Assembly (NCBI GenBank): GCA_023412005.1
Contig: JAEYOE010000012.1
Coordinates: 324,693-388,692 of the forward strand
DNA from: Bacillota bacterium
GTDB taxonomy: Bacteria > Bacillota > Clostridia > Christensenellales > SZUA-584
DNA: 64,000 nt
Direction of reading: 5' to 3'
Part shown: piece after piece, positions 47,843 through 64,000 of the stretch
How the letters are laid out: each line of letters begins with the position of its first letter
How positions within the stretch are numbered: position 1 is the stretch's first letter
The notes under the pieces: model-generated
Database searches by the model: none
What the model saw: the letters and a program-made list of their open reading frames with translations, nothing else
Told to the model about the DNA's origin: nothing
Translations under genes and position numbers: made by a program

Positions 47843-49129
47843 ATGAAAATAATAAAAAAGATAAGACAAAGCTTGGAGATTAAAAGCTTGCTGACGCTGA
47901 TGATGCTCGGTATGGCTCCGCTGATCTGTTTCGGTGTTATCAGCATCATCAACTTAGCATCACTGGCTCGGAAAAACGGATTGGATATACAGCGCAACAT
48001 CAACATCAGCATCATCATATTGGTAGCACTGATTGCCATAGTGTCTATAATTATCGCCATTTATCTCGTTAATGTCAGAAGACGAATTGTCTATCCAATT
48101 AAAACGATGATAGCAGCATTCAGAAATCTGCAGGATGGCAACATCACCAACAGTGAAAAATTGACAATCAAATCTGAGGACGAAATTGGCGAGCTTGGGA
48201 TGCTGTTTAATGCATTTATTGATGCGCGAGAGGATATCACTCTGCAGCAGAAGCTCGAAAGAAAGCTGAATGAGCAGAACAGAGAGCTTCAGGAAGCCAT
48301 GGTCATGCTGAAAAGCACGCAGCTTCAGATGGTTCAGCAGGAGCGGCTCGCGGCTATCGGTCAACTGGCGGCCGGCGTGGCGCATGAAATTAACAACCCG
48401 CTCGGGTATGTGAGCGGCAACGCGGATATGCTGAAAATATATGTTCAGCGTTATGAAAGCATATTGACAGATATGCGCCGATTGATGAAGGAACAGCAGA
48501 ATCAAAGTTCTTGCTGCGTTTATCTGGACGATGTTTGGGAGCAAAGCAAAATAGACATGGTGATTGCGGATATGCCTGACCTGATGAACGACATTACCGA
48601 AGGGCTCAAGCGCATAGCCGCTATTGTCAACGGGCTGAGAGGGTTCTCCAGAAACAATCTCATAGAGGGCAAAGGCACCTATGATTTGAACGAAGGGATT
48701 AGAACGACATTGTTGGTTGCCAACAACGAAATAAAGTACAATTGCGATGTGGGCCTTGAGCTGCTTGATATTCCGCCCGTTTATGCGAACGGCGGGCAGA
48801 TCAATCAGGTGCTGCTCAATATCATCATCAATGCATCTCACGCGATTCGTGCGAAGTTCGCAACTGAAAAAGGGCTGATTACGATAAAGACATACACGCA
48901 AGACGACAAGGCCTTCTGCAGCATCAGCGATAACGGATGCGGCATGTCAGAAGAGGTGAGAAGCCGAATATTTGAGCCGTTTTTCACCACCAAGCCGGTG
49001 GGGCAGGGCACAGGGCTGGGGCTCGGTATTGTGTACGATATCATTTGTAAGCAGCATGATGGCAGTATAGATGTGACATCAACCCTTGGCGAAGGCACAT
49101 GCTTTGTGTTTTCGCTTGCGGTTAAATAG
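47843..49129 (+). CDS. Sensor histidine kinase (2 TM, HAMP, HisKA, HATPase_c)
   Basis: H-box AAGVAHEINNPLGYV. N, G1 and G2 boxes present (NIIINASHAI, DNGCGM, GTGLGLGI). The extracytoplasmic loop is very short. Confidence 0.9.
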   Translation: MKIIKKIRQSLEIKSLLTLMMLGMAPLICFGVISIINLASLARKNGLDIQRNINISIIILVALIAIVSIIIAIYLVNVRRRIVYPIKTMIAAFRNLQDGNITNSEKLTIKSEDEIGELGMLFNAFIDAREDITLQQKLERKLNEQNRELQEAMVMLKSTQLQMVQQERLAAIGQLAAGVAHEINNPLGYVSGNADMLKIYVQRYESILTDMRRLMKEQQNQSSCCVYLDDVWEQSKIDMVIADMPDLMNDITEGLKRIAAIVNGLRGFSRNNLIEGKGTYDLNEGIRTTLLVANNEIKYNCDVGLELLDIPPVYANGGQINQVLLNIIINASHAIRAKFATEKGLITIKTYTQDDKAFCSISDNGCGMSEEVRSRIFEPFFTTKPVGQGTGLGLGIVYDIICKQHDGSIDVTSTLGEGTCFVFSLAVK

Positions 49130-49142
49130 GCGGTCAAAAACG

Positions 49143-50312
49143 ATGAAGAAGATTCTTGTGGTTGATGATGAAATAGCGATACTCAATGCGTTGCGCCGTG
49201 TACTGCAGAATTTAAACTATGATGTGATGATTGCAGATAACGGTCTCAAAGCATTGGAACTGATGGCTGAGCAACCGGTTGATTTGATAATCAGCGATAT
49301 GAGAATGCCCGGTATGGGCGGCTATGAGCTGCTTTCCCATGTAAAGGATCTGTATCCGAACACAGTCAGGATAATTTTGAGCGGCTATGCGGACGAGAAA
49401 ATTGTGATGAAAGCACTGCTGACAAACATCGCGAGAACTTATCTTTTTAAACCGTGGGATAATACTAAGCTGGCCGAATTAATCGGCTATCTGTTTGATA
49501 CGGAGAAACTGCTTCAAAGCAATTTGCTGTCGATGATCAACAACGCGGAGGATCTCCCCACGATACAATCAAGCTTCAGTCAAATCACATCGTTGATTGA
49601 TCAGGACGCCGAAATTGCGGTGGTGGCCAAGGCGATTATGGAAGACCAGACGGTTGCGGGAAAGATACTTCACATCGCGAATTCGGCCTTTTACGGATTG
49701 AAAACGGGATCGGTTTTGGAGGCCATTAAGTATCTCGGGCTCAAGGCCATTCGTGATATCGTGCTGTCAACGCCGATTATGGATTTGTTTAAAGCGTCGG
49801 GGCCGCATGCCATTATTATGGATAAACAGTGGAACCATGCGTTTTATACCAACAAGGTGCTTGTTTTTTTGTATGAGAAATTTTTTCGCAAAAACCTACC
49901 GGAAAGCGAGGGTAATGCAGGGCTTCTGCATAATATCGGCTGTGCGTTTCTGATTAAGCACCGGTATAGAGATTATATGTCAGTCAGAAAACGGGCATCA
50001 TTGGAGTCAATCATAGAAAGTGACCTCGAGCGAGATTCTTTGGGATTCACGCACTGTGAAGCGGGCGGGTATCTGTTAAGCTGGTGGGATCTGCCTTACC
50101 CGATTGTGGAATGTGCGCTTTATCATCACGCTCCCTTCGACAAGCGCATTATCAACAAAGAGCTGGTGATGGCGGTGCATCTGTCTCAAAAGCATGCCAC
50201 CGATCTGATGGGCGAGAAGAATCTTGAGCACTTTTATACCGAGGTTTATGATGCACTGTCAGTAGACCAAGAAAAATTTGAAAGGGCAATTGCCGGTATA
50301 AGCGAACCATAA
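49143..50312 (+). CDS. Response regulator with an HDOD output domain (REC-HDOD)
   Basis: REC motifs (VVDDE, LIISDMRMPGMGG, LFKPW), followed by an HDOD-like region (LPTIQSSFSQITSLI...AGKILHIANSAFYGL). Confidence 0.85.
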   Translation: MKKILVVDDEIAILNALRRVLQNLNYDVMIADNGLKALELMAEQPVDLIISDMRMPGMGGYELLSHVKDLYPNTVRIILSGYADEKIVMKALLTNIARTYLFKPWDNTKLAELIGYLFDTEKLLQSNLLSMINNAEDLPTIQSSFSQITSLIDQDAEIAVVAKAIMEDQTVAGKILHIANSAFYGLKTGSVLEAIKYLGLKAIRDIVLSTPIMDLFKASGPHAIIMDKQWNHAFYTNKVLVFLYEKFFRKNLPESEGNAGLLHNIGCAFLIKHRYRDYMSVRKRASLESIIESDLERDSLGFTHCEAGGYLLSWWDLPYPIVECALYHHAPFDKRIINKELVMAVHLSQKHATDLMGEKNLEHFYTEVYDALSVDQEKFERAIAGISEP

Positions 50313-50332
50313 AAATATCAAGGTATCAATGC

Positions 50333-50363
50333 AGCGGCGCCGTCAAGGGCGGCCGCTTTTTTT
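50333..50363 (+). terminator. Intrinsic terminator after the REC-HDOD gene
   Basis: GC-rich stem AGCGGCGCC / GGCGGCCGCT followed by TTTTTTT. The stem covers the stop codon of the convergent transglutaminase gene. Confidence 0.75.
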
Positions 50364-52619
50364 AATTATGCGCGCAAAAAAGTAGCCGAAGAAACCAAGC
50401 TCATGGCGCAGTTGCTTTTCCAAATCGGTGTAAAATTCCGACAGCAGCCGGACATCTTCCTCGGTTGGCTCCTTGCAGCCAAAACGCATCTTCATAACGG
50501 GCAGAAATAATTCGAAAATGTGTTGCGGGGTAAGCTTTTCTTCCAGCCGCAGCGCAAAACTCTGGATGGTGTCTGACGGGTGCTGATGAATACCCATACA
50601 AGCTGCCTGATGCAATATCTTGCGGTAATACATCGTCAGCCGGTCTCCGGGGGTTGTATACTTATGCTTTGTATCGTATCCGCTTCGCTGAAGGCTGATA
50701 TACCGAATGATGAAAAAGAAGATGACCGCAGCCAAAAAGCCCGCTAACAAGATGAGCAGCACGAGCAGAGCAGGAGGGATACCGTCATTTTGGGCGAATA
50801 ATGGGCTCGAATCCAAAGCTGTTTTCGGCGCGGACGAAGAAATCGGCGGTATAAAGTCGGATTCTGACGTATTCGTATCGACAGTCGCGTCCTCGTCTGC
50901 ATTCCACCCCGTCGCATCGAACGGAACCCAGCCAATACCCCGAAAATAAACCTCTGTCCAGGCATGCGATGTCGCATTGGTGGCGACATAGTCGGTATCC
51001 GATTTGGAATATGGGCTGCTCTTTAAGCCAAACCCAATCACATAGCGCGCAGGTAAACCGACGCATCGGGACATTACCGTCATGGCGCTGGCAAAATAAA
51101 CACAGTATCCTTGGCGGTATTCCAGAAACGAAGCCACGAAATCCTCATCTTCCGTCGGATTGCCAGGTGTCAGTGAATATGTGCAATGGGTATTCAGCCA
51201 GTTTTTAATCGCAAGGGCTTTCTGATAGGGGGTGACGCAGTCTGTGGTGATCGTGCGTGCCGCTTCGCTAACCGATGGCGGCAGCGAGGCCGGAAGCGAC
51301 AGATATGCGGTGCTGACGGGATCGATGGAAGGGTCTGGAGCATCCATAGCCAGAGCTTCCAACGCAAGCATATTGTTATCATAGTTGTCTGCTTCTGTGT
51401 TGAAAACAACCGTGTCAAACGCGTAACTGAACTGCCCCTGAGTGTTAAGAGTGAACAGTTCTGCCTGATTATTGAAGTACAAATCAGACGTTTCGGGTTT
51501 TTTGCTGGTGACGGTCAGCAGCTTGCCCGCAATAAACAGTGTGCGCCCCTTCAACGTACCGGTAACTTCAAACGAGGCCGGCATTGTGACCGCATCAATA
51601 AGCTTCGCGGCCTCAGGGCTGACGCCGTCCGGCAGGTTCAAGCAAAAGGCGTTAACTTTTTGGGAGCTGCTGAAAATACTTTGATACCTATGACGCTGAC
51701 GAGAATATGAATCGTACCATCTGGTTCCGTCGTAGGCATCGAACACAGCGCCGGTTAACCGAACGGGTGTAGACGTATTAACACTGAGCACAATGTCGTT
51801 ATTTGCGGTGATGTTTCCGCCCAGCCTGTTTTCCAATGGTGAGAAACCGGTTACTCCCATGTTAAAAGACCCGTCTGCAGGCGATTGATTCTGACTAAAA
51901 CCCAGATAGTCAGAAATGTCCGAAACGGCATTGACCAGCGGTTTACATTGCCAGTCTTTATTATTGGCGGGCGCGATAAGAAAAACAGCCAAAAGCAAAA
52001 CAGGCATCAGCATGATAGCCGAAATAGACAGCATGGCACTGGTGATTCCGTTTTTTTGCTGATGGCTTATTTTGTTGCCGCGCATTTTGGCGAGCGACAC
52101 AAACAAGACGAACAGCAGCATAATGACAATAGGCCACAACGCAGTGGATTGGCTTAAAGCTGCTGCAAGCAGCATAGCCAGAATAGCAGGGGGCAGTAAA
52201 TAGAAGAAAAACAATCGGCGATAAAACAAAAAGCCAAGGGCTGCCACCGGTAGAGCATAAAACGCATGAACGATAATAATGCTGCCGTCTGTTGAATACG
52301 GTAGCGTGTCTTTATAGCCGCTGACGCACCACGAAAAAAATCCGTTGATATACGCGGCCACTGCCTCGTCTGCCTCAAGCACGGCCGTGATAATCACTGT
52401 CAGCAGTATTGCGGCCCCCAAAAATGCCGGTAGTATCCACCATCTGCGCGAAAACAATATGACCAGCAACGTATCGGCAATCATCAGCAGCAGACATTCA
52501 CCCCAGCCGACATCCATGCGCAGCGCGGGAAAAAGCAGCGCGCAAAAAGCTGTGCCAAGCAGCAAGCTGCAGATAGCATCAGAAATCATTCCTGCGGTTT
52601 TTGAGCTCAGAAACGTCAT
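50343..52619 (-). CDS. Transglutaminase-like membrane protein (TgpA-like)
   Basis: Multiple N-terminal TM helices. Cys-His-Asp core context: GYCVYFASAM, SHAWTEVYF, VPFDAT. I prefer the ATG at 52619 (GAGGA SD overlapping the DUF58 stop). Confidence 0.88.
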   Translation of the reverse strand: MTFLSSKTAGMISDAICSLLLGTAFCALLFPALRMDVGWGECLLLMIADTLLVILFSRRWWILPAFLGAAILLTVIITAVLEADEAVAAYINGFFSWCVSGYKDTLPYSTDGSIIIVHAFYALPVAALGFLFYRRLFFFYLLPPAILAMLLAAALSQSTALWPIVIMLLFVLFVSLAKMRGNKISHQQKNGITSAMLSISAIMLMPVLLLAVFLIAPANNKDWQCKPLVNAVSDISDYLGFSQNQSPADGSFNMGVTGFSPLENRLGGNITANNDIVLSVNTSTPVRLTGAVFDAYDGTRWYDSYSRQRHRYQSIFSSSQKVNAFCLNLPDGVSPEAAKLIDAVTMPASFEVTGTLKGRTLFIAGKLLTVTSKKPETSDLYFNNQAELFTLNTQGQFSYAFDTVVFNTEADNYDNNMLALEALAMDAPDPSIDPVSTAYLSLPASLPPSVSEAARTITTDCVTPYQKALAIKNWLNTHCTYSLTPGNPTEDEDFVASFLEYRQGYCVYFASAMTVMSRCVGLPARYVIGFGLKSSPYSKSDTDYVATNATSHAWTEVYFRGIGWVPFDATGWNADEDATVDTNTSESDFIPPISSSAPKTALDSSPLFAQNDGIPPALLVLLILLAGFLAAVIFFFIIRYISLQRSGYDTKHKYTTPGDRLTMYYRKILHQAACMGIHQHPSDTIQSFALRLEEKLTPQHIFELFLPVMKMRFGCKEPTEEDVRLLSEFYTDLEKQLRHELGFFGYFFARIIKKSGRP

Positions 52620-52627
52620 GGTATTCC

Positions 52628-53794
52628 TCAAAATAAAATACCGCTCAAGCTGGCGGCAGCATCAGAACCGGGCTCCACAACATGGGTCGGCATCGTTGAT
52701 CCGGCTGTTTTTCCCCCAATCAATACCATTGAAGCAGCAATACTGGCAGAAAATAAGCGCAGAACCGTTTGTGTGACAGAGAGCTCCGGGTCGCGCGTCA
52801 GGATAAACAAAGATTTTGCGGCTGCTGCCTTAAATTGCACCTTTGTTATCGCGGCAGAGAAGTCGACAGTTTGCTCGAAGGGCAGCAAGGCCAGCGCGCG
52901 GCGAAGCACTTCGAAATCGGTAACGGAACGGCAACGGATGGGGGAGCTTATGCCGTGAGAACTCAAGAGGCTGACCGATTGGTTCTTTGTTAAGCAGTAA
53001 AGAGCGATGCACGCGGCGCATTCACAGACGGTATCCGCATAAATAAGCGCCTCTTCTCCACTGAGCCCATGAAGGCCGGTGTCTATCAGAATCACGATAT
53101 GCTCTCGCTCCGGAAATTCATACTGGCGGACATACAGCTGCCCCAACTGGGCTGATTTTTTCCAGTTGATAAGTTTGGCCGGATCCCCGTTTTGATAAAG
53201 CCGCGCGCCAGAAATGCTGTCGCCATGCTCGGCATGTTTCAAATAGGAAGCGCGGTGCATCTTTGAATCGGATATATGACTGGGCAGATTGCTGGGTATG
53301 CGTGCCCGCGGGAGCACAATCAGCTTAGGCATTCGGTAAAATGAAAACCGCCGCATATCAAAAGACATTGTGACAAGGCCGAATATATCGGTCACTTTGA
53401 TTCGGGTCATACCAACATTAAAATGACCTCGGTAAGGTGTGTTTACGGGTATTTCAAAAACCTGACCGGTATACGGTGCAAGGCTGAAAAGAAGACGGAT
53501 GTCCTCGTGAACTGACACGACGCTGACGTGAACCTCAATTAGCGACAAAGGCACCGGACGTTCGTTGACGATTTCTAGATGCAAAGAGGTGGCTTCTGCT
53601 TTTTCACGGGTCTTGTCGGACAATTCCTGCTGATATGAGAAAGAACGAAAAGTCCAATAGTTGATGATGATCATTGTGATAACAACCAGAAGCTGCGTTA
53701 AAAAAACAATGTAATAAATGCGCATGCCGGTATACATACCAAACAATAGGCATATCAGCATCACAGCATAATAAAATCCTCTTAAGGCTTTCAT
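52628..53794 (-). CDS. DUF58-family protein
   Basis: Two N-terminal TM helices. DUF58-type motif ARLYQNGDPAKLINWKKSA...YVRQYE. ATGA overlap with moxR. Confidence 0.85.
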   Translation of the reverse strand: MKALRGFYYAVMLICLLFGMYTGMRIYYIVFLTQLLVVITMIIINYWTFRSFSYQQELSDKTREKAEATSLHLEIVNERPVPLSLIEVHVSVVSVHEDIRLLFSLAPYTGQVFEIPVNTPYRGHFNVGMTRIKVTDIFGLVTMSFDMRRFSFYRMPKLIVLPRARIPSNLPSHISDSKMHRASYLKHAEHGDSISGARLYQNGDPAKLINWKKSAQLGQLYVRQYEFPEREHIVILIDTGLHGLSGEEALIYADTVCECAACIALYCLTKNQSVSLLSSHGISSPIRCRSVTDFEVLRRALALLPFEQTVDFSAAITKVQFKAAAAKSLFILTRDPELSVTQTVLRLFSASIAASMVLIGGKTAGSTMPTHVVEPGSDAAASLSGILF

Positions 53795-54741
53795 GACACA
53801 CCGGGGACTTTAATAGATTGAATGATCAGCTGCACGATATTCTCCGCTGTTTCATTTTCCTGCAGCGCTGTCAGGCTCAGCATCAAGCGGTGAGCCAGCA
53901 CAGGAGCGGCCATGGCTTGAACATCATCGGGCAGCGTGTAATGTCGGCCTTGCAGCATCGCATGAGCCATTGCCGCATTCATCAACGCCAGTGAGCCGCG
54001 CGGGCTGATACCCAGCGCAACACGGCTGTGACGGCGCGTGGCTTCGGTGATGGAGACGATATAATTCATCACCGCGTTTTCGCAAATAATACCCGCATGG
54101 CAGGCGCGCAGACGCATAATATCCTCAGCATCGGCAACGGGTTCCACAGAATCCATCGGTCTTGAGCCTTTATTGCGTTTTAATATATCAATCTCATCGG
54201 TCTTTTGGGGATAACCGATGGATAGCTTAAACAAAAACCGGTCGAGCTGCGCTTCGGGAAGCGGGTAAGTGCCCACATGTTCAACTGGATTTTGGGTTGC
54301 GAGTACAATAAAAGGCTGAGGCACGGGATGGCTGATGCCGTCAATCGTGATCTGACCCTCCTGCATCACTTCAAGCAAGCTGGACTGTGTTTTGGGGCTG
54401 GTGCGGTTAATTTCGTCAGCCAAAACAACCTGAGCCATCACACCGCCGAAAACAACGTCTCTTTCTCCGCTTGCAGGATTAAAAACCGTATACCCCGTGA
54501 CATCAGACGGCAGAACATCAGGCGTGAATTGTATCCGCCTGTACGAGCATTTTAATGAGCGTGCGAGGGCGGAGACGAGCGTCGTTTTGCCGACACCCGG
54601 TACATCCTCAATAAGCACATGGCCGCTGCAAATAAGCGCTGCCAAAATCATTTCAATAATGTTTTCTTTGCCGACGATAACCTTTGAAATGTTTTCTTTG
54701 ATGCGCGAAATCAGATCAAGGCCGGATGTGAGATTATTCAT
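53791..54741 (-). CDS. MoxR-family AAA+ ATPase
   Basis: Walker A EDVPGVGKT, Walker B LADEINR, and the ATQNP motif. Confidence 0.92.
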   Translation of the reverse strand: MNNLTSGLDLISRIKENISKVIVGKENIIEMILAALICSGHVLIEDVPGVGKTTLVSALARSLKCSYRRIQFTPDVLPSDVTGYTVFNPASGERDVVFGGVMAQVVLADEINRTSPKTQSSLLEVMQEGQITIDGISHPVPQPFIVLATQNPVEHVGTYPLPEAQLDRFLFKLSIGYPQKTDEIDILKRNKGSRPMDSVEPVADAEDIMRLRACHAGIICENAVMNYIVSITEATRRHSRVALGISPRGSLALMNAAMAHAMLQGRHYTLPDDVQAMAAPVLAHRLMLSLTALQENETAENIVQLIIQSIKVPGVS

Positions 54742-55121
54742 AATAAAACGTCCCTGTAAAAAAGTTTAATAATATTAATGTTTTCCACTATATTCTACTT
54801 CAAATTAAAGTATTTATCGAGAGTTTTTTTAATTGTTTAAAAACGGTAAAAAAAGATTGGAAGATCAGAAATTTGGGGGCTTACGAGGGCTGCCCGGCCG
54901 GGACAAGCCTTTTATAAGAGCAACCCTCGCCCTAATAAATTAGCGTATTCTACTTAACAGCAACTTAACAGGCCGGTAACACAACACAAAATTCCAACTA
55001 TCACGCAATAACAATTGTAATGAAAACCCTATAAAATGTAATATGTTTGTGTTTTGAAATGTATTTTCTGTTTAATAAATAATTAATTAATTAATATGGA
55101 AGTAAAAAGGAGATGGTGCAT

Positions 55122-57266
55122 ATGAAGTGGTTTTTAAATCGAAAGCTCAGTTTTAAGATTATTTCTGGTTTTTTGGTAATTGCCGTTATTGTTGCAGTGG
55201 TCGGCGCAATGGGTCTTCTGAGTATAACGACAATCAATAACGGAAACATAATGATGTATGAGGAAAATGTGGTTTCGCTGGAAAAACTGGCGGATATGAA
55301 TCAGCTGTATCAGCGGACGCGTGTGATCGTCAGAGATATTATTCTGCTTGACAAAGCGGAAGATAAACAAAGAGAAGTTGAGAATCTGGCAGAAAAGGAT
55401 GCCTCGATACAGGCCATTCTGGACGAGCTGAGAACATTCGTTAATCCGGATGAAGTAGGCAAAATTGATTCGCTGGAAAGCGGCTTGGCATATTATAAGC
55501 CTTTAAGGCAAGCGGTGATTGATCTTGCGCTGGCAGGCAAAGCCGCAGAAGCCTATCAGTCACTGGAAAGTGAAGCGACAGATGCTGCGGCTATGAAGGT
55601 TCAAAACGAGATCAGTGAATGGCAGACTTATACGGCAGATGAATCGCTCGCAGCATACAACGTGAGCCAGCAGGCAGCCGCTGCGGCTACGCTGACTGTG
55701 ATAATCATCATTGCCGTCGGCTTGATTATAGCCATACTACTGGGTTTGTTCATCTCTCGCCAGATCAGCAAGCCTGTAAGGTTTTTATCGGCTGCGGCCA
55801 AAAAGGTAGCAGACGGCGACATGAATGTCGGGATTATCAAATATGATGCAAAAGACGAAGTGGGGGACCTCGTCAGATCGTTCCGGCAGGTGATGAAATC
55901 GGTCCTGGGGCTGATAGAGGATATAAAACAACAAGGCGACGCGGTGATTCACGGGCGTTATTTTGAAAGGTTGAATACCGAAAACCAAAAAGGTGCATAC
56001 AAAGAAGTTCTTGATGGCGTCAATAAGCTGACTGACGCGTTTGTGAATGAAATTGATAAAATACCTATGCCGCTGATGAAAATTGATAAAGACTATAATG
56101 TACAGTTTATCAATGCGCATGCCGCCGCAATGGCAGGCAGAGATCAGCATGACATGTCAGCGATGAAATGCTACGACATTTTCAAAACAGACGACTGTGG
56201 TACAGAAAATTGTGCATGCTCACGCGCAATGGATACTCAAAGCGTTCAGCAGAGAGAAACCAACGCCCGCCCGATGGGTGAAATACGAGAGATCATGTAT
56301 ATTGGCGTTCCTTCATTCAAAGAGGGTGAGGTCATCGGTGCGTTTGAAATTATCAAGGATATGACGGACGTGAAAGCCGCGATGAGAAAAGGGCTAAAGC
56401 AGGCAGATGAGATGAAAGCGCTCTTGGCCGATGTTGATTTGGCTGCTCAGCAGGTTGCGGCAGGTACGGCTCAGGTATCGAGCGGCAGTCAGGCAATCTC
56501 TCAGGGTGCAACCGAGCAGGCAGCCTCCATTGAGGAATTGACATCAACGATCACACAAATTGCATCGCAAACACGGCAGAACGCACTCAGCGCCAATCAG
56601 GCCAATGAGATGTCGGAACAGGCCAAAGAGCAAGCGCAGCAAGGCAACGATCAGATGAGAGCGCTTCAGCAGGCAATGAGTGAAATCAACGAGTCTTCTG
56701 CGAATATTTCCAAGATCATCAAAGTGATCGATGACATCGCGTTTCAAACCAACATACTCGCGCTAAATGCGGCGGTGGAAGCGGCTAGAGCGGGCGTTCA
56801 CGGCAAAGGCTTTGCGGTGGTCGCAGAAGAAGTGAGAAATTTGGCGGCACGCAGCGCAAATGCAGCCAGAGAAACAACGGAACTCATTGAAGGGTCAATG
56901 AAAAAGACCGAGGTTGGAACAAAGATAGCCGATGAAACAGCGATAGCGCTGGCGCACATCGTTGATGTGGTCGGTAAGGCGGTTGAACTCGTGCGAGAGA
57001 TTGCGAATGCCTCCAATCAACAGGCGACGGCTGTGGGGCAGGTGAATATGGGCATAGAGCAGATGTCTCAGGTGGTTCAAACCAACTCGGCAACATCGCA
57101 AGAGGCTGCTGCTGCTGCTCAGGAGCTGTCGAGCCAGGCGGCTATGCTGAAAGACATGGTGAGTACATTCATGCTTAAGCAAAAAGGTGCGCAGACATTA
57201 GGGCCGCCAAGGGATGAAGAGCCATTACAGCTTGATCCGGATAAAGATGATTTCGGGAAATATTAA
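55122..57266 (+). CDS. Methyl-accepting chemotaxis protein (4-helix-bundle sensor, HAMP, PAS-like Cys4 module, signalling domain)
   Basis: Two TM helices, HAMP, a PAS-like segment with C-x8-C-x4-C-x-C, and the conserved MCP tip. The C-terminus is DFGKY. I prefer the ATG at 55122 for SD spacing. Confidence 0.93.
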
Positions 57267-57293
57267 TACAAATTGAAAGGCAAAACGCGTCAG

Positions 57294-57333
57294 CCGGTGT
57301 TAGCGGAAATCGCTTTCACCGGTTTTTCTTCTG
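57294..57333 (+). terminator. Intrinsic terminator
   Basis: CCGGTG...CACCGG stem with an inner AGCG/CGCT pair, followed by TTTTTCTTC. Confidence 0.75.
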
Positions 57334-57749
57334 TTGAAAACTTATTCAGTCCTATGAGTTCATAATACTGGTAATCATGACGACTGTGGAACGCTTGAAG
57401 GGCACCTATAAGCATGCTGCTCAAAAAAATATTTGAGTGTTTTATTGAAATGTTTTTAATCCAAAGAGCGGTTGCTGTTATGGAAGCGCAGTTTATTCAA
57501 TCATATTCTTTGACATTTAAGTTGCTTACACAGGGCAATTTTCGGTTATTTGGTTCTAAAAAGGCTGGATAAAACGATTTTAAAATAATTTTGGACGAAA
57601 ATATGGAAGCGCATCGCCACATCAGCTAACGTCAATAATCTCTCAGTTATTGTAATAATCAAAAAAATATTCATATAAATTCATTATGATTCCTGTTAAA
57701 TAGTCATTAATTAACACGATATAATAAGAGATGATCTTAAGAACTCTTG

Positions 57750-57778
57750 TTAAGTGTTCGTTAAGTCATAACGATTAT
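57750..57778 (+). promoter_or_regulatory. Candidate sigma-D/FliA-type promoter
   Basis: TTAAG-17 nt-CGATTAT. The same layout occurs upstream of the next MCP gene and of cheW. Confidence 0.4.
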
Positions 57779-57870
57779 GAATAAGAATAGAAAATGTTTC
57801 TTGGGTTGTGTGAACTTATTGCAACAGGAGATAAATTTTCGAGTAAGTCTATTTTTGAGGAGAGATAGAA

Positions 57871-60132
57871 ATGAAATCATTAAAAACAAAAATGATCGTG
57901 ATATTCTCGGTGACAATGTCGTTGGTGCTTGCTGCCATTGGCACGATAACGGTTATTAACGTCAGGAATATTATGGTGCCGCTGAACAACAATCTGACGA
58001 CTCAGGTTGTTAACGCAAGATCAGATGAACTCGGAAAGTATCTCAAAGGCATTGAGTATGAGATGAAAACTTGGTCGGAAGAAAATGTTGTAAGCTCGGG
58101 TGATGCCGATACCATTTGGGCTGAGCTGCAAAAAAAGCAGAGCAAGTTAAGGCCTGATTTTGAAATGCTTCTCTATTCTGATATTGACGGGAACTTCTAT
58201 TCATCTTTGGGTGGAAAAGGAACGATTGCGGACCGTGAATATTTTATGCAAATCAAGAATGGCAGCAGCTATAGCTTAAGCAATCCCGTAGAATCAAGAG
58301 CCACCGGAAAAACAATTTTTGTGGCGGCTCACGAAGTGAAAAATGAACAGGGTAAGCTTGTCGGCGTGATTGCCGCTACAATACTGCTCGATACGTTTAA
58401 CGATGTTGTTAACAATATTAAAATCGGAGAAAAAGGATTCGCCTGGATAACGGATTCCACCGGACTGATCATTGCACATCCCGATAGTGATATCCGTTTA
58501 AAGCTCAATGCGATCGAATCAGAAAAAAGCGGGTTTGTCGGCTTGGATGAAGTGGGTAAGAGCATGATGGCCGGTCAAGCAGGTATGAAAGAATACTTTA
58601 AAGCAGGTGAGAAAGCAATTTCCATATTTGCGCCGATTCCCGATACACCCAATTGGTCCATGGCATATACAATGTATGAAACAGAGCTGATGGCCCCCAT
58701 CGACAGTTTAACAACAACGATTTTGATCGTTATTGCTTTGGCTATATTGGTTAATGCCGCGATCACCTTCTTTGTTGCATCGAATACGGTACGGCCCATA
58801 AAAGCGACTGCCGAATGTGCGAAAGCGTTGGCAAGCGGCCATTTGGATGCCCCGCTTAGCGTTAAATCTAAAGATGAGATTGCTGAACTTGCACAAGTTT
58901 TAAATAATCAGGTTCGGCAGGCATTTAAGGACATCGAATCGGCAAAGGCCATCGCTGACAAACAGGCAAAGTATCAGGCGCAAGAGGTTGAAAAGGTGGT
59001 TGTGAACCTTGAACGGTTATCCCGCGGAGAACTGTACTGCGATATAACCGTTAATGAACCGGACGAAGATACGAAAGAACTATTCCGGGTTTATGATGCC
59101 ATTGCCTCTAACCTTCACAATGCAATCGGGTCAATGAGCGGCTATATCAGCGAGATTACCCAAGTGCTTGGCGAAATGGCAGATGGCAATCTTGATGTGG
59201 GAATCAGATCGGAATACAAAGGGGACTTTGTTAAGCTCAAAGAATCTATCAATGGCATCGTGCTTTCGTTGAACGAATTGATGAGCGAAATTAACACGGC
59301 ATCACAGCAGGTGGCTGCGGGAACCTCGCAGGTGTCGGATGGCAGTCAAGCCATTTCACAGGGCGCATCTGAGCAGGCGGCATCGATTGAAGAACTGACA
59401 GCGACGATTACCCAGATTGCAGCGCAAACAAGGCAGAATGCGCTGAGTGCAGGCAAAGCCAGTGAGATGTCGGAGCAAGCCAAAGACAGTGCGGTATCCG
59501 GCAACGATCAGATGAAGGCGCTGCAGCAGGCCATGTCTCAGATCAACGAGTCGTCCGCAAGCATATCAAAGATCATCAAAGTGATCGATGATATCGCGTT
59601 CCAAACCAATATCCTCGCGCTGAACGCAGCGGTGGAAGCGGCAAGAGCCGGTGTTCACGGCAAGGGGTTTGCGGTGGTTGCCGAAGAAGTGAGAAACCTC
59701 GCGGCCCGCAGTGCAGCGGCAGCCAAAGAGACAACAGAGCTGATTGAAGGATCGATCAAAAAGGCGGATGCCGGCACCAAGATAGCGGACGAGACGGCGG
59801 AAGCGCTGGGGCGTATTGTTGACGTGGTTGAGCAGACTGTGAAACTGGTGGGTGAGATTGCGGAAGCGTCGAACCAGCAGGCATCGGCAGTCGGGCAAGT
59901 GAACAGAGGCATTGAGCAGATGTCGCAGGTGGTGCAGACGAATTCGGCAACGTCTCAACAGACAGCAGCAGCGGCAGAAGAGCTTTCGAGCCAAGCCGCC
60001 ATGCTCAAAGAAATGGTCAGCAAGTTCACTCTCAGTGAAGCAAGTGCTGCGCATTTAGTCAGCGGCAGAGCCGATAACATGAATTTGGCGGAGCACTTAT
60101 CGCTTGCTGACAGTGATTTCGGTAAGTATTGA
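57871..60132 (+). CDS. Methyl-accepting chemotaxis protein (double-Cache sensor, HAMP, unassigned insert, HAMP-like segment, signalling domain)
   Basis: dCache-like periplasmic region between two TM helices, and the conserved tip. The C-terminus is DFGKY. Confidence 0.93.
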
Positions 60133-60157
60133 AAAATGGCCGATTGACTTGATGAGA

Positions 60158-60194
60158 GGGTTCCCAACATACAATGCGGGAACCCTGTCTTTAT
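60158..60194 (+). terminator. Stem-loop terminator with a weak T tract
   Basis: GGGTTCCC...GGGAACCC followed by TGTCTTTAT. Confidence 0.55.
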
Positions 60195-60287
60195 ATGAAA
60201 GGACCGGCGCAGGCTAAGAGAATAAAGTGTAATCAATTTTTAAAAAAGTACGATATAACAAAAAGGCGATCGGTCGTAAGGCTTTTG

Positions 60288-60316
60288 TTAAGTACTTGTT
60301 AAGGAATAACCATTAT
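60288..60316 (+). promoter_or_regulatory. Candidate sigma-D/FliA-type promoter
   Basis: TTAAG-17 nt-CCATTAT. A second possible -10 element, CGATATAA, lies at 60251-60258. Confidence 0.35.
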
Positions 60317-60413
60317 AAATTATATAGGAATTATTTATTGGATTGTATAAACCATATAACAATCATGTCATTTATTTACGAAAACATAATTTTTAAAAAA
60401 TGGAGATGGGAAA

Positions 60414-62714
60414 ATGAGAAAGAATATAGAACAAGCGAAAGAAATAAGGAAACGAGGCATTGGTAAGAAAATAAGCGCATTAATTATCAGTTCCGTTATT
60501 TTAGTAGTGTTCATTACGGTTGGGTTTTCGATAATTTCATTCATACAGCTTATGAAAGACAAAGCAAAGGTACAAGCCATAAAAGGTGTTGAAGGCCTTT
60601 TTCAACAAATCGACATGCAAAAAGCCAATGCTAAAGACATAGCGGCGCTGTTAGCAACGGATCAAAAAATAATCGACGGTGTACAGAAGAAGGATAAAGA
60701 TGCAATTAAGCAAGTGATGGCTGGAATTTCGGAAAACATTAATGCTGATTTCATCACATTTTCGGATGAGAACGGAACAGCTATCTTCAGAACCCATGAT
60801 CCTGAAAATTTCGGTGACAGTGTGATGGGTGAGGAAAACGTCGTAAGAGCCTTATCTGGTGAGGCCACAACACTCGTGGAAAAGGGGACGGCGATACCGC
60901 TTTCGGTAATCGCATCTTGTCCAATTAAAGATGATTCTGATCATATATTGGGCGTTGTATCAACAGGCACCAGACTTGATAACAATGATTTGTTGGATAA
61001 GAGTAAATCGGTACTGCAAACGGATTTAACAGTTTTTCTAGATAATATTCGCATTGCAACAACCATTGAAAAGGATGGAAAGAGGGTTATCGGCACCGAA
61101 CTCGATCCGAAAATTGCTGATGTGGTACTCAATCAAAAAAACAATTACTCAGGCGAAGCCGATATTATAGGGCAGAAATACATCACTTATTATTCACCAA
61201 TTCTCGATTCTGAAGGAAAAGCAATTGGTTTGTTGTTTGCAGGCCAACCTATGACGCAGTTCTACGCTGATTTAAGCCAGATATTGGTGATCGTTATGAC
61301 AATAGCTGTATTAACGATACTCTTTGTCGTTATTATTTCGGTTCTGATTATTAAAAAGAGCCTTACCAAGCCGCTTCGAGAGACATCTCAGTTGGCTAAC
61401 GAGCTTGCATCAGGAAATCTGGATCACACAATTCTTGTAAAAAACAGGGATGAGATCGGAGACCTCTCAAATATTCTCGATAAAGATGTTCGGCAGGCGT
61501 TTAAGAACATCGAATCGGCAAAAGCCATCGCTGATAAACAGGCAAAGTATCAGGCTCAAGAGGTGGAAAAGGTGGTTGTGAACCTTGAACGGTTGTCTCG
61601 CGGGGAGCTGTACTGCGATATAACCGTTAATGAACCGGATGAAGATACAAAAGAACTATTCCGGGTTTATGATGCCATTGCCTCGAACCTTCGCAATGCA
61701 ATCGGGTCAATGAGCGGCTATATCAGCGAGATCACCCAGGTGCTTGGCGAAATGGCAGATGGCAATCTTGATGTGGGAATCAGAACGGAATACAAAGGAG
61801 ACTTTGTTAAGCTCAAAGAATCTATCAACGGTATCGCAGTATCACTGAATGATGTACTCGGCGAGATCAACATTGCGGCACAGCAGGTGGCATCCGGCAC
61901 GTCGCAAGTGTCAGACGGAAGTCAGGCTATTTCTCAGGGCGCTACCGAGCAAGCCTCAGCCATTGAGCAGCTCACCTCAACTGTCACGGAAATTGCGGCA
62001 CAAACCAAGCAGAATGCGATGAGCGCAAGCAGAGCCAACGAAATGTCTGAAGAAGCGAAAAATAATGCCGTGAAGGGCAACGAACAGATGACGGCACTGC
62101 AACAAGCCATGGCGCAAATTAACGACTCATCCGCAAGCATATCGAAAATCATCAAGGTGATTGACGACATCGCTTTTCAGACGAATATCCTCGCGCTGAA
62201 TGCGGCTGTGGAAGCGGCGCGGGCCGGTGTTCACGGCAAGGGGTTTGCGGTGGTTGCCGAAGAAGTGAGAAACCTAGCGGCCCGCAGCGCGGCTGCGGCC
62301 AAAGAGACCACTGAGCTGATTGAAGGGTCGATTAAAAAGACTGAGGTCGGCACAAAAATTGCGGATGAAACAGCCAAAGCGCTGGAACAAATCGTAAAGG
62401 GCGTCGAGAAAGCCGTTGATCTTGTGGCTGAAATTGCGAGTGCATCCAATCAGCAGGCCACGGCTATCGGTGAAGTGAACAGAGGCATCGAGCAGATGTC
62501 TCAGGTGGTGCAGACGAATTCGGCCACGTCCGAAGAGACAGCAGCGGCCGCCGAAGAGCTCTCGAGCCAGGCAGCCATGCTCAAAGAAATGGTGGGTAAG
62601 TTTGAATTGACGGATGCAGCGGCGATGCCTTTAAAGCAAACCGCTCCACGCACTGAACCATACCAAGAAAAGCAAGGGATTTCGCTCGATGACGGCGATT
62701 TTGGAAAGTATTGA
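60414..62714 (+). CDS. Methyl-accepting chemotaxis protein (Cache-type sensor unlike its neighbour's, HAMP, unassigned insert, HAMP-like segment, signalling domain)
   Basis: Large periplasmic Cache-like region between two TM helices. The downstream part is paralogous to 57871-60132. The C-terminus is DFGKY. Confidence 0.93.
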
Positions 62715-62734
62715 TTCAATATTAGCCTGAAACG

Positions 62735-62777
62735 GGTTCCCGTGCAGCAAAAATGTGCGGGAACCTTACTTTTTCTC
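62735..62777 (+). terminator. Intrinsic terminator
   Basis: GGTTCCCG...CGGGAACC followed by TTACTTTTTCTC. Confidence 0.75.
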
Positions 62778-62786
62778 GATATAGTC

Positions 62787-62814
62787 TTGCATTATGCACA
62801 TGGTGTGGTATAAT
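62787..62814 (+). promoter_or_regulatory. Sigma-A promoter with an extended -10 element
   Basis: TTGCAT-16 nt-TGgTATAAT. Confidence 0.65.
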
Positions 62815-62840
62815 AAGACAAACTAAATGTTTGATATTGG

Positions 62841-62940
62841 CTTTTAAGCCGATAAAGGCAAACCCGGTGAAAGCCGGGGACGCAAAGCTATGGGGTCTAA
62901 ATCGCTCAGATATGACAGCCCGGCCACCGAAGATTAGAAG
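62841..62940 (+). promoter_or_regulatory. c-di-GMP-I (GEMM-I) riboswitch aptamer
   Basis: AAGGCAAACCCGGUGAAAGCCGGGGACGCAAAGCUAUGGGGUCUAAA...CCCGGCCACCGAAG carries the conserved class I blocks in order (GGCAAACC, GAAA tetraloop, GGGACGCAAAGC, CUAAA, ACCGA). Confidence 0.85.
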
Positions 62941-63132
62941 TTTTTTATTTGCGCCTAAACCCTGATTCGCAGGGTTAAATAGATGGGGAGAAATATCAAA
63001 CAGACGCACTCAAAACATAATACACCATGCGTAATGCAGGTTATTTGCACCACATTCACACCATATTCACACAAAGTGGCCGAGAAAACTCAAGCCCTCT
63101 CCTGACAAAGTTTGTATCCGAAAAGGCGAGGG

Positions 63133-63164
63133 AAAACCACAGCACACGCTGTGGTTTTTCTTTT
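63133..63164. terminator. Intrinsic terminator, strong on the + strand, shared with the convergent DUF1540 gene
   Basis: Stem AACCACAGC-ACAC-GCTGTGGTT followed by TTTTTCTTTT on the + strand. The minus strand has only TTTT. Confidence 0.8.
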
Positions 63165-63187
63165 GCGAACACAGCACCACGTATGCA

Positions 63188-63508
63188 TTATTTGGGGCGG
63201 TATGTCTCGCAATTGCAGATAACCGAATCATGCGCGTCGTCGATTTGAACATTTACCGCACGGCAGTGGAAAGACTTGTTGTAGGTGCATTGTGTGACAT
63301 TACAAGAAATACGCGGCATATGTCCCTCAAGCTCATCGCCGAACTCCGTATCTGCCGGCATCAAGGAAGCGGCTGCAAACGTGTTCTCTTTGGTGTAGGT
63401 ATCGCAGTACGTTTCTTGAGATGTGTTGCTGACCAGAATCATGTTGGCACTGCACCGCTCATGCGAATTATACACGCAGTCAGCGGCCTGGCATTTTAAC
63501 GATTTCAT
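63188..63508 (-). CDS. DUF1540 domain protein (two Cys-rich repeats)
   Basis: Repeats C-x2-C-x-YN...C (KCQAADCVYNSHERC and CNVTQCTYNKSFHC). An AAAGGA SD lies 9 nt before the ATG. Confidence 0.8.
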   Translation of the reverse strand: MKSLKCQAADCVYNSHERCSANMILVSNTSQETYCDTYTKENTFAAASLMPADTEFGDELEGHMPRISCNVTQCTYNKSFHCRAVNVQIDDAHDSVICNCETYRPK

Positions 63509-63907
63509 ACCGGTTTATCCTTTCGTTTCAAATCACCTCGCGGCCCAACTTAAGATTTTGAGCCGGAAACATAGCGGATAGCGGTGAATGCAATCGGGCA
63601 GCCGATGATCACTTGAATCCGTATGCTGATATTTTGTTTTTCTTATTATGTCTGCTGCTTAAAAAAATATGTGTGGCAGCAATAGCATCGCTAATTATGT
63701 CTAAAAATAAAATATTATGGATATTATTGTGAGAAGCAGACGGGCGCTATTGACAAGATATCGGGCACAATTATATAATGATTTTGGTCTACAAGGGCTG
63801 GAATTTCTTGAAGTACGTATTTATTCCCAATTAGACATAGAATAAATTGTCGGGTATGCGTTTTACTTTGTCCGGTATTTTCATTTTTATAGAATTGAAG
63901 GAGATTC

Positions 63908-64000
63908 GTGTTGGACATCAGTTTGTTAAAAGAAAAGAGTTTAATGGACTTGCGTGAAATTGCCAAAATGGCAGGCATAAAGTCGGTAACGAAGTTTCGC
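63908..64000 (+). CDS. 5' fragment of a Rho_N/SAP-like domain protein, possibly transcription termination factor Rho (continues off the window)
   Basis: AAGGAG SD followed by a GTG or TTG start. The N-terminus LDISLLKEKSLMDLREIAKMAGIKSVTKFR resembles Rho N-terminal helices. Only 31 codons are visible. Confidence 0.4.
   Translation, partial: MLDISLLKEKSLMDLREIAKMAGIKSVTKFR

Follow-up and report, generated by a model that had tools for sequence, protein, structure and literature searches.

The subject of this analysis is a noncoding transcription unit near the right end of a 64,000-nucleotide (nt) stretch of DNA from a Bacillota bacterium (contig JAEYOE010000012.1), called here the window. We favor the view, and hold it rather probable in both its parts together, that the unit is self-contained and acts through a transcriptional OFF switch. 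Its first ~125 nt are a class I cyclic di-GMP (c-di-GMP-I) riboswitch, followed by ~215 nt of structured noncoding domain with its own terminator. c-di-GMP would then probably switch an RNA, not a protein gene, on or off. A sequence-only reading of the window had proposed that this riboswitch gates no protein gene in cis. It had offered three explanations: a c-di-GMP-gated small RNA (sRNA), a c-di-GMP sponge, or transcriptional interference with the neighboring DUF1540 gene. On the + strand the unit runs from promoter through aptamer, U-run, and structured domain to terminator, and contains no protein gene. Its parts and its neighbor are as follows.

62787-62814 (+), promoter: -35 TTGCAT at 62787-62792, 16-nt spacer, extended -10 TGgTATAAT at 62806-62814
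62835-62854 (+), leader hairpin UAUUGGCU-UUUA-AGCCGAUA, from the ligand-free minimum-energy fold
62839-62950 (+), P1 extension and U-tract: 62839-62847 pairs with 62934-62942 and encloses the aptamer; U-tract at 62941-62950
62848-62932 (+), c-di-GMP-I (GEMM-I) aptamer, from Rfam cmscan
62951-63128 (+), structured noncoding domain, from 17 full-length copies and covariation
63129-63164 (+), intrinsic terminator AGGGAAAACCACAGC-ACAC-GCUGUGGUUUUUCUU then UU, from fold energy
63188-63508 (-), DUF1540 gene encoding a cysteine-rich protein of 106 amino acids (aa), from Pfam PF07561 (E 2.4e-13)

Aptamer, related loci, and coding potential

The aptamer matches known models well. A cmscan of the whole 64-kb window against Rfam gave a sole match, to RF03167 of clan CL00126, at 64.6 bits (E 5.6e-13). 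This exceeds the gathering score of 59 and bears out the class I c-di-GMP aptamer named in the sequence-only reading. A second member of the clan, presumably RF01051 (gathering score 35), also lies above its own gathering score and is masked by clan competition. In the alignment to the Rfam model, P2 is capped by a GAAA tetraloop and P3 bears a tetraloop-receptor-like UCUAAA...UAUGA. Across homologs, P2 has compensatory changes at 4 pairs and P3 is 93% paired.

Three ligand-site positions in the window, G62857, A62884, and C62927, show the canonical G/A/C pattern. We take these to be the equivalents of G20, A47, and C92 in the Vc2 structure. All three are invariant in 16 copies (alignment A5). 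RF03167 describes a GGC variant, where the meaning of "GGC" was read from the Rfam consensus. This model gives the best window score, but its consensus GACGCGAA has G at the variant-defining position, and the window sequence GACGCAAA has A62884 there. The A is common to all 16 homologs, and the ligand specificity of the variant was rejected for window and homologs on this ground. Among homologs the best model alternates between RF01051 (65.9-83.1 bits) and RF03167 (66.7-68.9 bits). With A62884 canonical and the homologs switching their best model, the RF03167 label reflects model competition, not a different site. We regard the aptamer as a genuine and ordinary member of c-di-GMP-I, with c-di-GMP as the presumed ligand.

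Related loci (L numbers are our handles) were gathered by way of the neighboring protein and of the RNA itself. Scanning genomes with the DUF1540 protein yielded 10 loci in uncultured Bacillota/Clostridia metagenome-assembled genomes, at 71-96% protein identity. All 10 have a c-di-GMP-I aptamer convergent with DUF1540, ~260-310 nt from the gene end. A DNA pattern taken from the spacer's 3' end was scanned against metagenomes and gave 12 matches, of which only L016 and L013 are true homologs. Look-ups of remoter DUF1540 proteins (57-79% identity) added L025/L026, L028, L032, and L033, along with L029, L030, and L031, where the copy is partial and lies at a contig end. Of the domain, L030 and L031 show just the 3' end, where the contig breaks off. 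No match to the RNA was found in the 122 nt after the gene in L023 (Christensenellales, 56% DUF1540 identity). In total, 19 related loci carry part or all of the unit, with one copy per locus. The complete unit of promoter, aptamer, U-run, 200-260-nt domain, and terminator is present in 15, each found via the DUF1540 neighbor or the DNA pattern and not via the aptamer.

The copies do not share a protein. No open reading frame (ORF) of at least 10 aa is conserved on the sense strand of 11 copies. Likewise, on either strand of 17 copies, ORFs of at least 30 aa have no conserved position, frame, length, or start codon, and the sole recurrent "ORF" is the translated aptamer. The window has a 40-codon ATG frame at 62983-63105, but the ATG at 62983 reads AUA in about half of the copies and the frame is not conserved. 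Nor is the 73-codon frame at 63027-63248. Insertions and deletions of 2, 4, and 27-32 nt separate the copies and are not multiples of three, and none of the three codon positions varies in the best-conserved blocks. The earlier claim that no ORF follows the riboswitch therefore holds in the sense that none is conserved, while its inventory of ATG frames was incomplete, having overlooked the 40-codon frame. Its central inference is supported by the 15 homologous loci, none of which has a conserved ORF. It had also raised the possibility of a protein gene lost from the window, but in none of the relatives does such a gene directly follow the riboswitch.

The promoter is placed by its sequence, which predicts a transcription start at ~62821. 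The TTG of the -35 element and the TGnTATnnT of the extended -10 element are invariant in an alignment of 11 loci. The sequence-only reading had called this a near-consensus sigma-A promoter. Its elements lie where that reading put them, but the -35 hexamer is not near consensus, because TTGCAT matches just 3 of the 6 consensus bases. This also explains why a consensus scan did not list the promoter.

The structured domain

The region between the U-run and the terminator is conserved as an RNA structure. Its consensus helices, all on the + strand, are as follows.

62952-62955 / 63125-63128 (+), closing helix, CGCC / GGCG
62959-62964 / 62970-62975 (+), hairpin ACCCUG-AUUCG-CAGGGU
62985-62990 / 63097-63102 (+), long-range helix, GGGGAG / CUCUCC; folds recover GGGGAG/CUCCCC
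63025-63030 / 63036-63041 (+), variable hairpin

The domain also has invariant unpaired blocks. Independent minimum-energy folds of 17 sequences recover the same helices, two peripheral hairpins, and the terminator, and the fold of the window domain as a single sequence has a z of -3.62. When the consensus structure was applied to alignment A4, 92.6% of cells were paired, compared with 46-55% in slid controls and 89.0% in shuffles, an agreement that is inflated, as A4 was also the source of the tested structure. Changes on both sides are seen at 16 pairs, against 6-9 in slid controls and 7.4 +/- 1.8 in shuffles (0 of 500 reach 16). Compensatory changes in the peripheral helices are evident by eye. 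These hairpins have clade-specific sequences, reading GGAUGG/CCAUUC in L032, GGCAUG/CAUGCC in L013, and GGCAU/AUGCC in L025. G-U pairs are frequent, which identifies the + strand as the functional one. The sequence-only reading had left open whether the spacer would show covariation or codon-like conservation, and the answer is a covarying structured RNA.

No Rfam family was found for the domain by cmscan of window positions 62700-63300 (E <= 10) or of five homologous loci (E <= 5). The low-stringency output contained chance-level matches to the terminator hairpin only.

Two local features vary among the copies. A hairpin arm of 27-32 nt (window region 63043-63096; A4 columns 153-184) is absent from the window, L001, and L032, and L013 and L025 have shorter, different arms at these columns. 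The arm looks dispensable and peripheral, given these copies without it. In addition, a candidate 4-base-pair (bp) pseudoknot joins the loop of the first hairpin (H2; UUCG, 62966-62969) to CGAA at 63119-63122, just before the closing helix. It is 96.8% paired, yet no better than shuffles. The pairing survives two one-sided changes in L032; L025 has a shorter loop and lacks the 3' partner through a deletion.

The many junctions and the invariant unpaired segments of the domain are suggestive of an RNA whose fold does the work. As judged from sequence, the domain is probably the functional payload of the unit, acting by protein or ligand binding or in trans, and not by long antisense pairing.

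One copy separates this payload from the riboswitch. In L013, from a bioreactor metagenome, the domain and terminator (640-960, -) are convergent with two tandem DUF1540 genes. The promoter, ggTGGTATTTTAT, looks homologous by eye to that of the window. In the place of the riboswitch is an unrelated leader of ~50 nt with no U-run, and cmscan found no aptamer in this locus even at E <= 5. The existence of the domain without an aptamer marks it as an independent RNA gene. On this sequence comparison, the riboswitch is a control module that has been added or lost. A payload without its sensor illustrates the way in which a noncoding RNA gene that already exists can acquire a riboswitch. Because the domain is under selection and occurs without an aptamer, a c-di-GMP-gated sRNA fits best among the three explanations first offered for the unit, and the sponge and interference options explain less.

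The unit ends in a strong terminator, as had been noted. The hairpin at 63129-63164 has an extended stem of 15 bp, at -25.5 kcal/mol and z -7.05 on the + strand. A scan did not list it, and we think that pairing of the A-tract with the U-tract perhaps lengthens the stem and consumes the U tail under the rule of that scan. Fifteen of the 17 copies share an identical core stem, CCACAGC/GCUGUGG, though the neighboring DUF1540 proteins are only 57-96% identical to that of the window. In L025 it carries one compensatory change, from G-C to A-U. Such conservation exceeds what a terminator needs, and the core stem may also be a recognition site.

The proposed switch

The aptamer is followed by a candidate expression platform that is conserved in cis, and this platform precedes a noncoding domain rather than a protein gene. 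The sequence-only reading had pointed to a P1 helix, CUUUUAA/UUAGAAG, abutting a U-run. The helix is present and longer than described, reaching from 62839-62847 to 62934-62942. Across 15 distinct homologs, 98.5% of cells in the P1 extension are paired. Of its 9 pairs, 7 vary on one side and 1 varies on both, with pairing always kept, and L028 and L025 have G-C in place of some of the G-U pairs. Directly 3' of the extension the window reads U6-AUUU, and a U-rich tract directly follows the P1 stem in 16 of 16 riboswitch-bearing copies. A P1 stem that adjoins a U-tract would act as an intrinsic terminator.

A second structure competes for the same strand. The leader hairpin occupies the 5' strands of both P1 and the P1 extension, making it a candidate anti-P1, and hence anti-terminator, element. 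The minimum-energy fold without ligand includes this hairpin in the window as in each of the 16 homologs, and it places no hairpin next to the U-tract. By nearest-neighbor energies in the 16 homologs, the fold with the leader hairpin beats the fold with aptamer and P1 by 4-11 kcal/mol. Nanomolar ligand binding could bridge a gap of this size.

The switch is therefore modeled as a contest between two stems. The leader hairpin at 62835-62854 would form first and hold the 5' strand of P1 (step 1). At high c-di-GMP, ligand binding would let the aptamer junction close P1 and its 9-bp extension (step 2). The closed P1 stem beside the U-tract would then serve as an intrinsic terminator, stopping transcription at ~62946-62950 (step 3). 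At low c-di-GMP the leader hairpin would win, no terminator stem would form, and polymerase would reach 63164, giving an RNA of ~345 nt. In this model the most likely device is a transcriptional OFF switch that uses P1 itself as its terminator stem, with no separate expression platform. The class I switches of C. difficile, such as Cd1, are mostly OFF switches, and the predicted logic agrees with this. The design would be compact, with the expression platform seemingly reduced to the P1 stem, a U-tract, and a competing 5' hairpin.

Several points weigh against this account of unit and switch. The domain structure was tested on the alignment it came from. The leader hairpin has no covariation support, its invariant sequence placing it beyond such a test. 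A terminator stem that encloses a structured insert of ~90 nt is unusual. The domain showed no conserved pairing with the ribosome-binding region of DUF1540 when RNAduplex was run on 10 loci against shuffled targets (z -2.3 to +0.6). The carriers form one fairly narrow clade, with rho proteins 76-98% identical, so part of the conservation and synteny could be shared ancestry. Finally, start site, U-run termination, and full-length RNA are all predicted.

Genomic context, alternatives, and known systems

The RNA unit converges on DUF1540 wherever both ends lie on the contig. In the window, 23 nt separate the end of the terminator from the DUF1540 stop codon (63188-63190), and the arrangement is tail-to-tail, not head-to-head as first described. 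The terminator hairpin also forms on the - strand, where it is a plausible terminator for DUF1540. Beyond DUF1540 and divergent from it lies rho, in nearly all related loci, which makes rho, DUF1540, and the noncoding RNA a conserved block. The N-terminal domain of rho (63909-64000, +) runs off the window, and a perfect TTGACA-18-TATAAT promoter lies at 63750-63779 (+), ~125 nt upstream of the rho start.

Most relatives have two DUF1540 genes in an operon, with a second, short one (54-81 aa) directly upstream of the 106-aa gene (L002-L005, L007-L010, L013, L016, L025, L030, L032, and L033). In the window (63510-63700, -) and in L001 the second gene is a degenerate remnant with residual nucleotide similarity. 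A sporulation-type promoter sought by eye upstream of DUF1540 was dropped, as this region is the second DUF1540 gene in relatives. The C. difficile exosporium protein CdeA carries a DUF1540 domain (PMC7677010), and the shared domain hints at spore biology for the neighborhood by association only.

At the other end, the gene upstream of the riboswitch promoter varies. It encodes a methyl-accepting chemotaxis protein (MCP) in most loci, a GTPase resembling TypA/BipA (from its N-terminal sequence) in L007, and an AraD-like protein (by eye) in L013. L010 has homologs of the AAA (MoxR-like), DUF58, and transglutaminase genes of the window. The window region 49077-62714 holds three consecutive MCP genes with 4HB-PAS, dCache_1, and dCache_3/sCache_3 sensors, together with a REC-HDOD gene. 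On its - strand is an AAA (MoxR-type)/DUF58/transglutaminase cluster. Of the context given by the sequence-only reading, Pfam upholds DUF1540, REC-HDOD, and three of the four MCPs.

This convergent arrangement raises the possibility that the unit regulates DUF1540 by antisense transcription or interference. Leaky read-through of 63164, or a duplex between the complementary 3' terminator hairpins of the two RNAs, would then lower DUF1540 expression at low c-di-GMP. The convergence is found in every locus showing both elements while the upstream gene varies, and the hairpin can serve both strands. The distance from the aptamer end (62932) to the DUF1540 stop is 256 nt, within the 500 nt by which convergent antisense-acting riboswitches are operationally defined, and c-di-GMP riboswitches are the class most enriched in antisense arrangement (PMC9943018). 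Nevertheless, we think this unlikely. The two units are separated by a conserved 15-bp terminator of -25.5 kcal/mol with its U-tract, and interference does not need a domain of ~180 nt with covarying helices and invariant junctions. With this strong terminator and the structured domain in between, a long antisense transcript would not be expected. The absence of conserved pairing at the 10 loci applies to the DUF1540 5' region here as well.

L029 bears on the same question. A 90-aa protein gene (1303-1713, -) is inserted there between the RNA terminator and DUF1540, with its own AT-rich promoter-like region and Shine-Dalgarno sequence. The protein has a weak Pfam zinc-ribbon match and a transmembrane-like hydrophobic stretch, and the upstream part of the RNA is cut by the contig end. 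Despite this intervening gene, the RNA 3' end and terminator stem are unchanged, which argues against a mechanism needing a terminator shared with DUF1540.

A sponge or buffer for c-di-GMP is improbable. In such a scheme the abundant aptamer-containing RNA, above all its short, terminated form, would sequester ligand, as proposed for merRNA, and the downstream part would just stabilize it. Like merRNA, this is a riboswitch RNA without an ORF (PMC3627812); it has a promoter with an extended -10 element and sits among c-di-GMP and chemotaxis genes (REC-HDOD and MCPs). However, conservation of the domain in sequence and structure exceeds what a stabilizer would need, and L013 keeps the domain without the aptamer. 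Termination at the U-run on ligand binding would also part the bound aptamer from the domain.

We give similarly little credence to the domain as a second sensor in tandem, with two signals jointly deciding passage of 63164. Its build is aptamer-like, with a closing helix, a multi-helix junction, invariant unpaired nucleotides, and variable peripheral hairpins. The terminator starts 1 nt past the closing helix, a loop-to-3'-segment pseudoknot is compatible with the sequences, and tandem logic gates with c-di-GMP-I aptamers are known (PMC9481103). On the other side, no alternative anti-terminator pairing was seen by eye in the window sequence, the pseudoknot is without statistical support, and the only thing downstream to regulate is the antisense strand of DUF1540.

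It is very improbable that the unit is the leftover leader of a gene since lost, or that a small protein gene after the aptamer went unrecognized: small hypothetical proteins are encoded behind many c-di-GMP-I riboswitches of C. difficile (PMC11477304) and the window has its ATG frames of 40 and 73 codons, but ORF positions, frames, and lengths differ among the 17 copies on both strands, half of the copies have AUA for the ATG at 62983, the indels ignore multiples of three, invariant blocks are fixed at all three codon positions, and compensatory base-pair changes are not expected of a relic.

The c-di-GMP-gated noncoding RNA thus remains the reading we prefer, and its payload is a candidate new RNA class, being conserved, covarying, and outside any Rfam family. 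A more tentative proposal, which we consider possible but doubtful in its full form, is that the domain belongs to an undescribed class of structured RNA, either a protein or ligand binder or a second sensor, that is shut off by c-di-GMP through the P1 terminator and functionally tied to the neighborhood of rho and DUF1540, the latter as a CdeA-like spore-surface protein. If true, c-di-GMP signaling would be linked to a new RNA-based output in spore-forming Clostridia. The carriers are all uncultured metagenome-assembled genomes. A partner of the domain, if found, would reveal a new c-di-GMP output in anaerobic Bacillota. To our knowledge, almost all known c-di-GMP riboswitches control protein genes, and those with an RNA output are few, namely merRNA and the C. 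difficile antitoxin RNAs. A c-di-GMP-gated noncoding RNA is already precedented by these; what is new here is the downstream RNA family and the proposed use of P1 as the terminator platform.

Compared with c-di-GMP-I riboswitches such as V. cholerae Vc2 and C. difficile Cd1 (RF01051), the unit has the same fold, G20/A47/C92 contacts, GAAA tetraloop, and receptor-like motif. Those riboswitches, unlike the one here, have a protein gene downstream and a separate terminator hairpin, in place of what appears to be a terminator made of the extended P1 stem and a U-tract, with a competing 5' leader hairpin. The merRNA of Bdellovibrio bacteriovorus is likewise an RNA of a few hundred nt with a c-di-GMP-I riboswitch and no conserved ORF downstream; it is massively expressed, at a level comparable to structural RNAs, and has been reported only in Bdellovibrio (PMC3627812). 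Its downstream part has no described conserved structure, whereas the domain here covaries and is also found without an aptamer. Antisense-acting riboswitches, such as the C. acetobutylicum S-box at ubiG and Listeria AspocR, are likewise convergent with a gene, at a distance below 500 nt (PMC9943018).

In the adenosylcobalamin (AdoCbl)-responsive EutX/Rli55 RNAs and in RCd11/RCd12, as proposed here, a 5' riboswitch decides whether a functional noncoding RNA is completed. EutX and Rli55 sequester EutV via known hairpins, and the domain here is a different RNA with no Rfam family. As in EutX/Rli55, the downstream part stands as a noncoding module in its own right, here by conservation, covariation, and the riboswitch-less L013; its function we infer. 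In C. difficile, c-di-GMP-I riboswitches precede the RCd11 and RCd12 RNAs, and there is also one orphan riboswitch (PMC11477304). RCd11 and RCd12, which overlap a small toxin gene, are type I antitoxins, whereas the neighbor here is a 106-aa DUF1540 gene and no toxin ORF is present. A type I antitoxin was rejected for the unit, as the convergent gene encodes this cysteine-rich protein and no small opposite-strand ORF is conserved. Overall, the arrangement is closest to the riboswitch-regulated noncoding RNAs EutX/Rli55 and RCd11/RCd12, and it is also close to merRNA.

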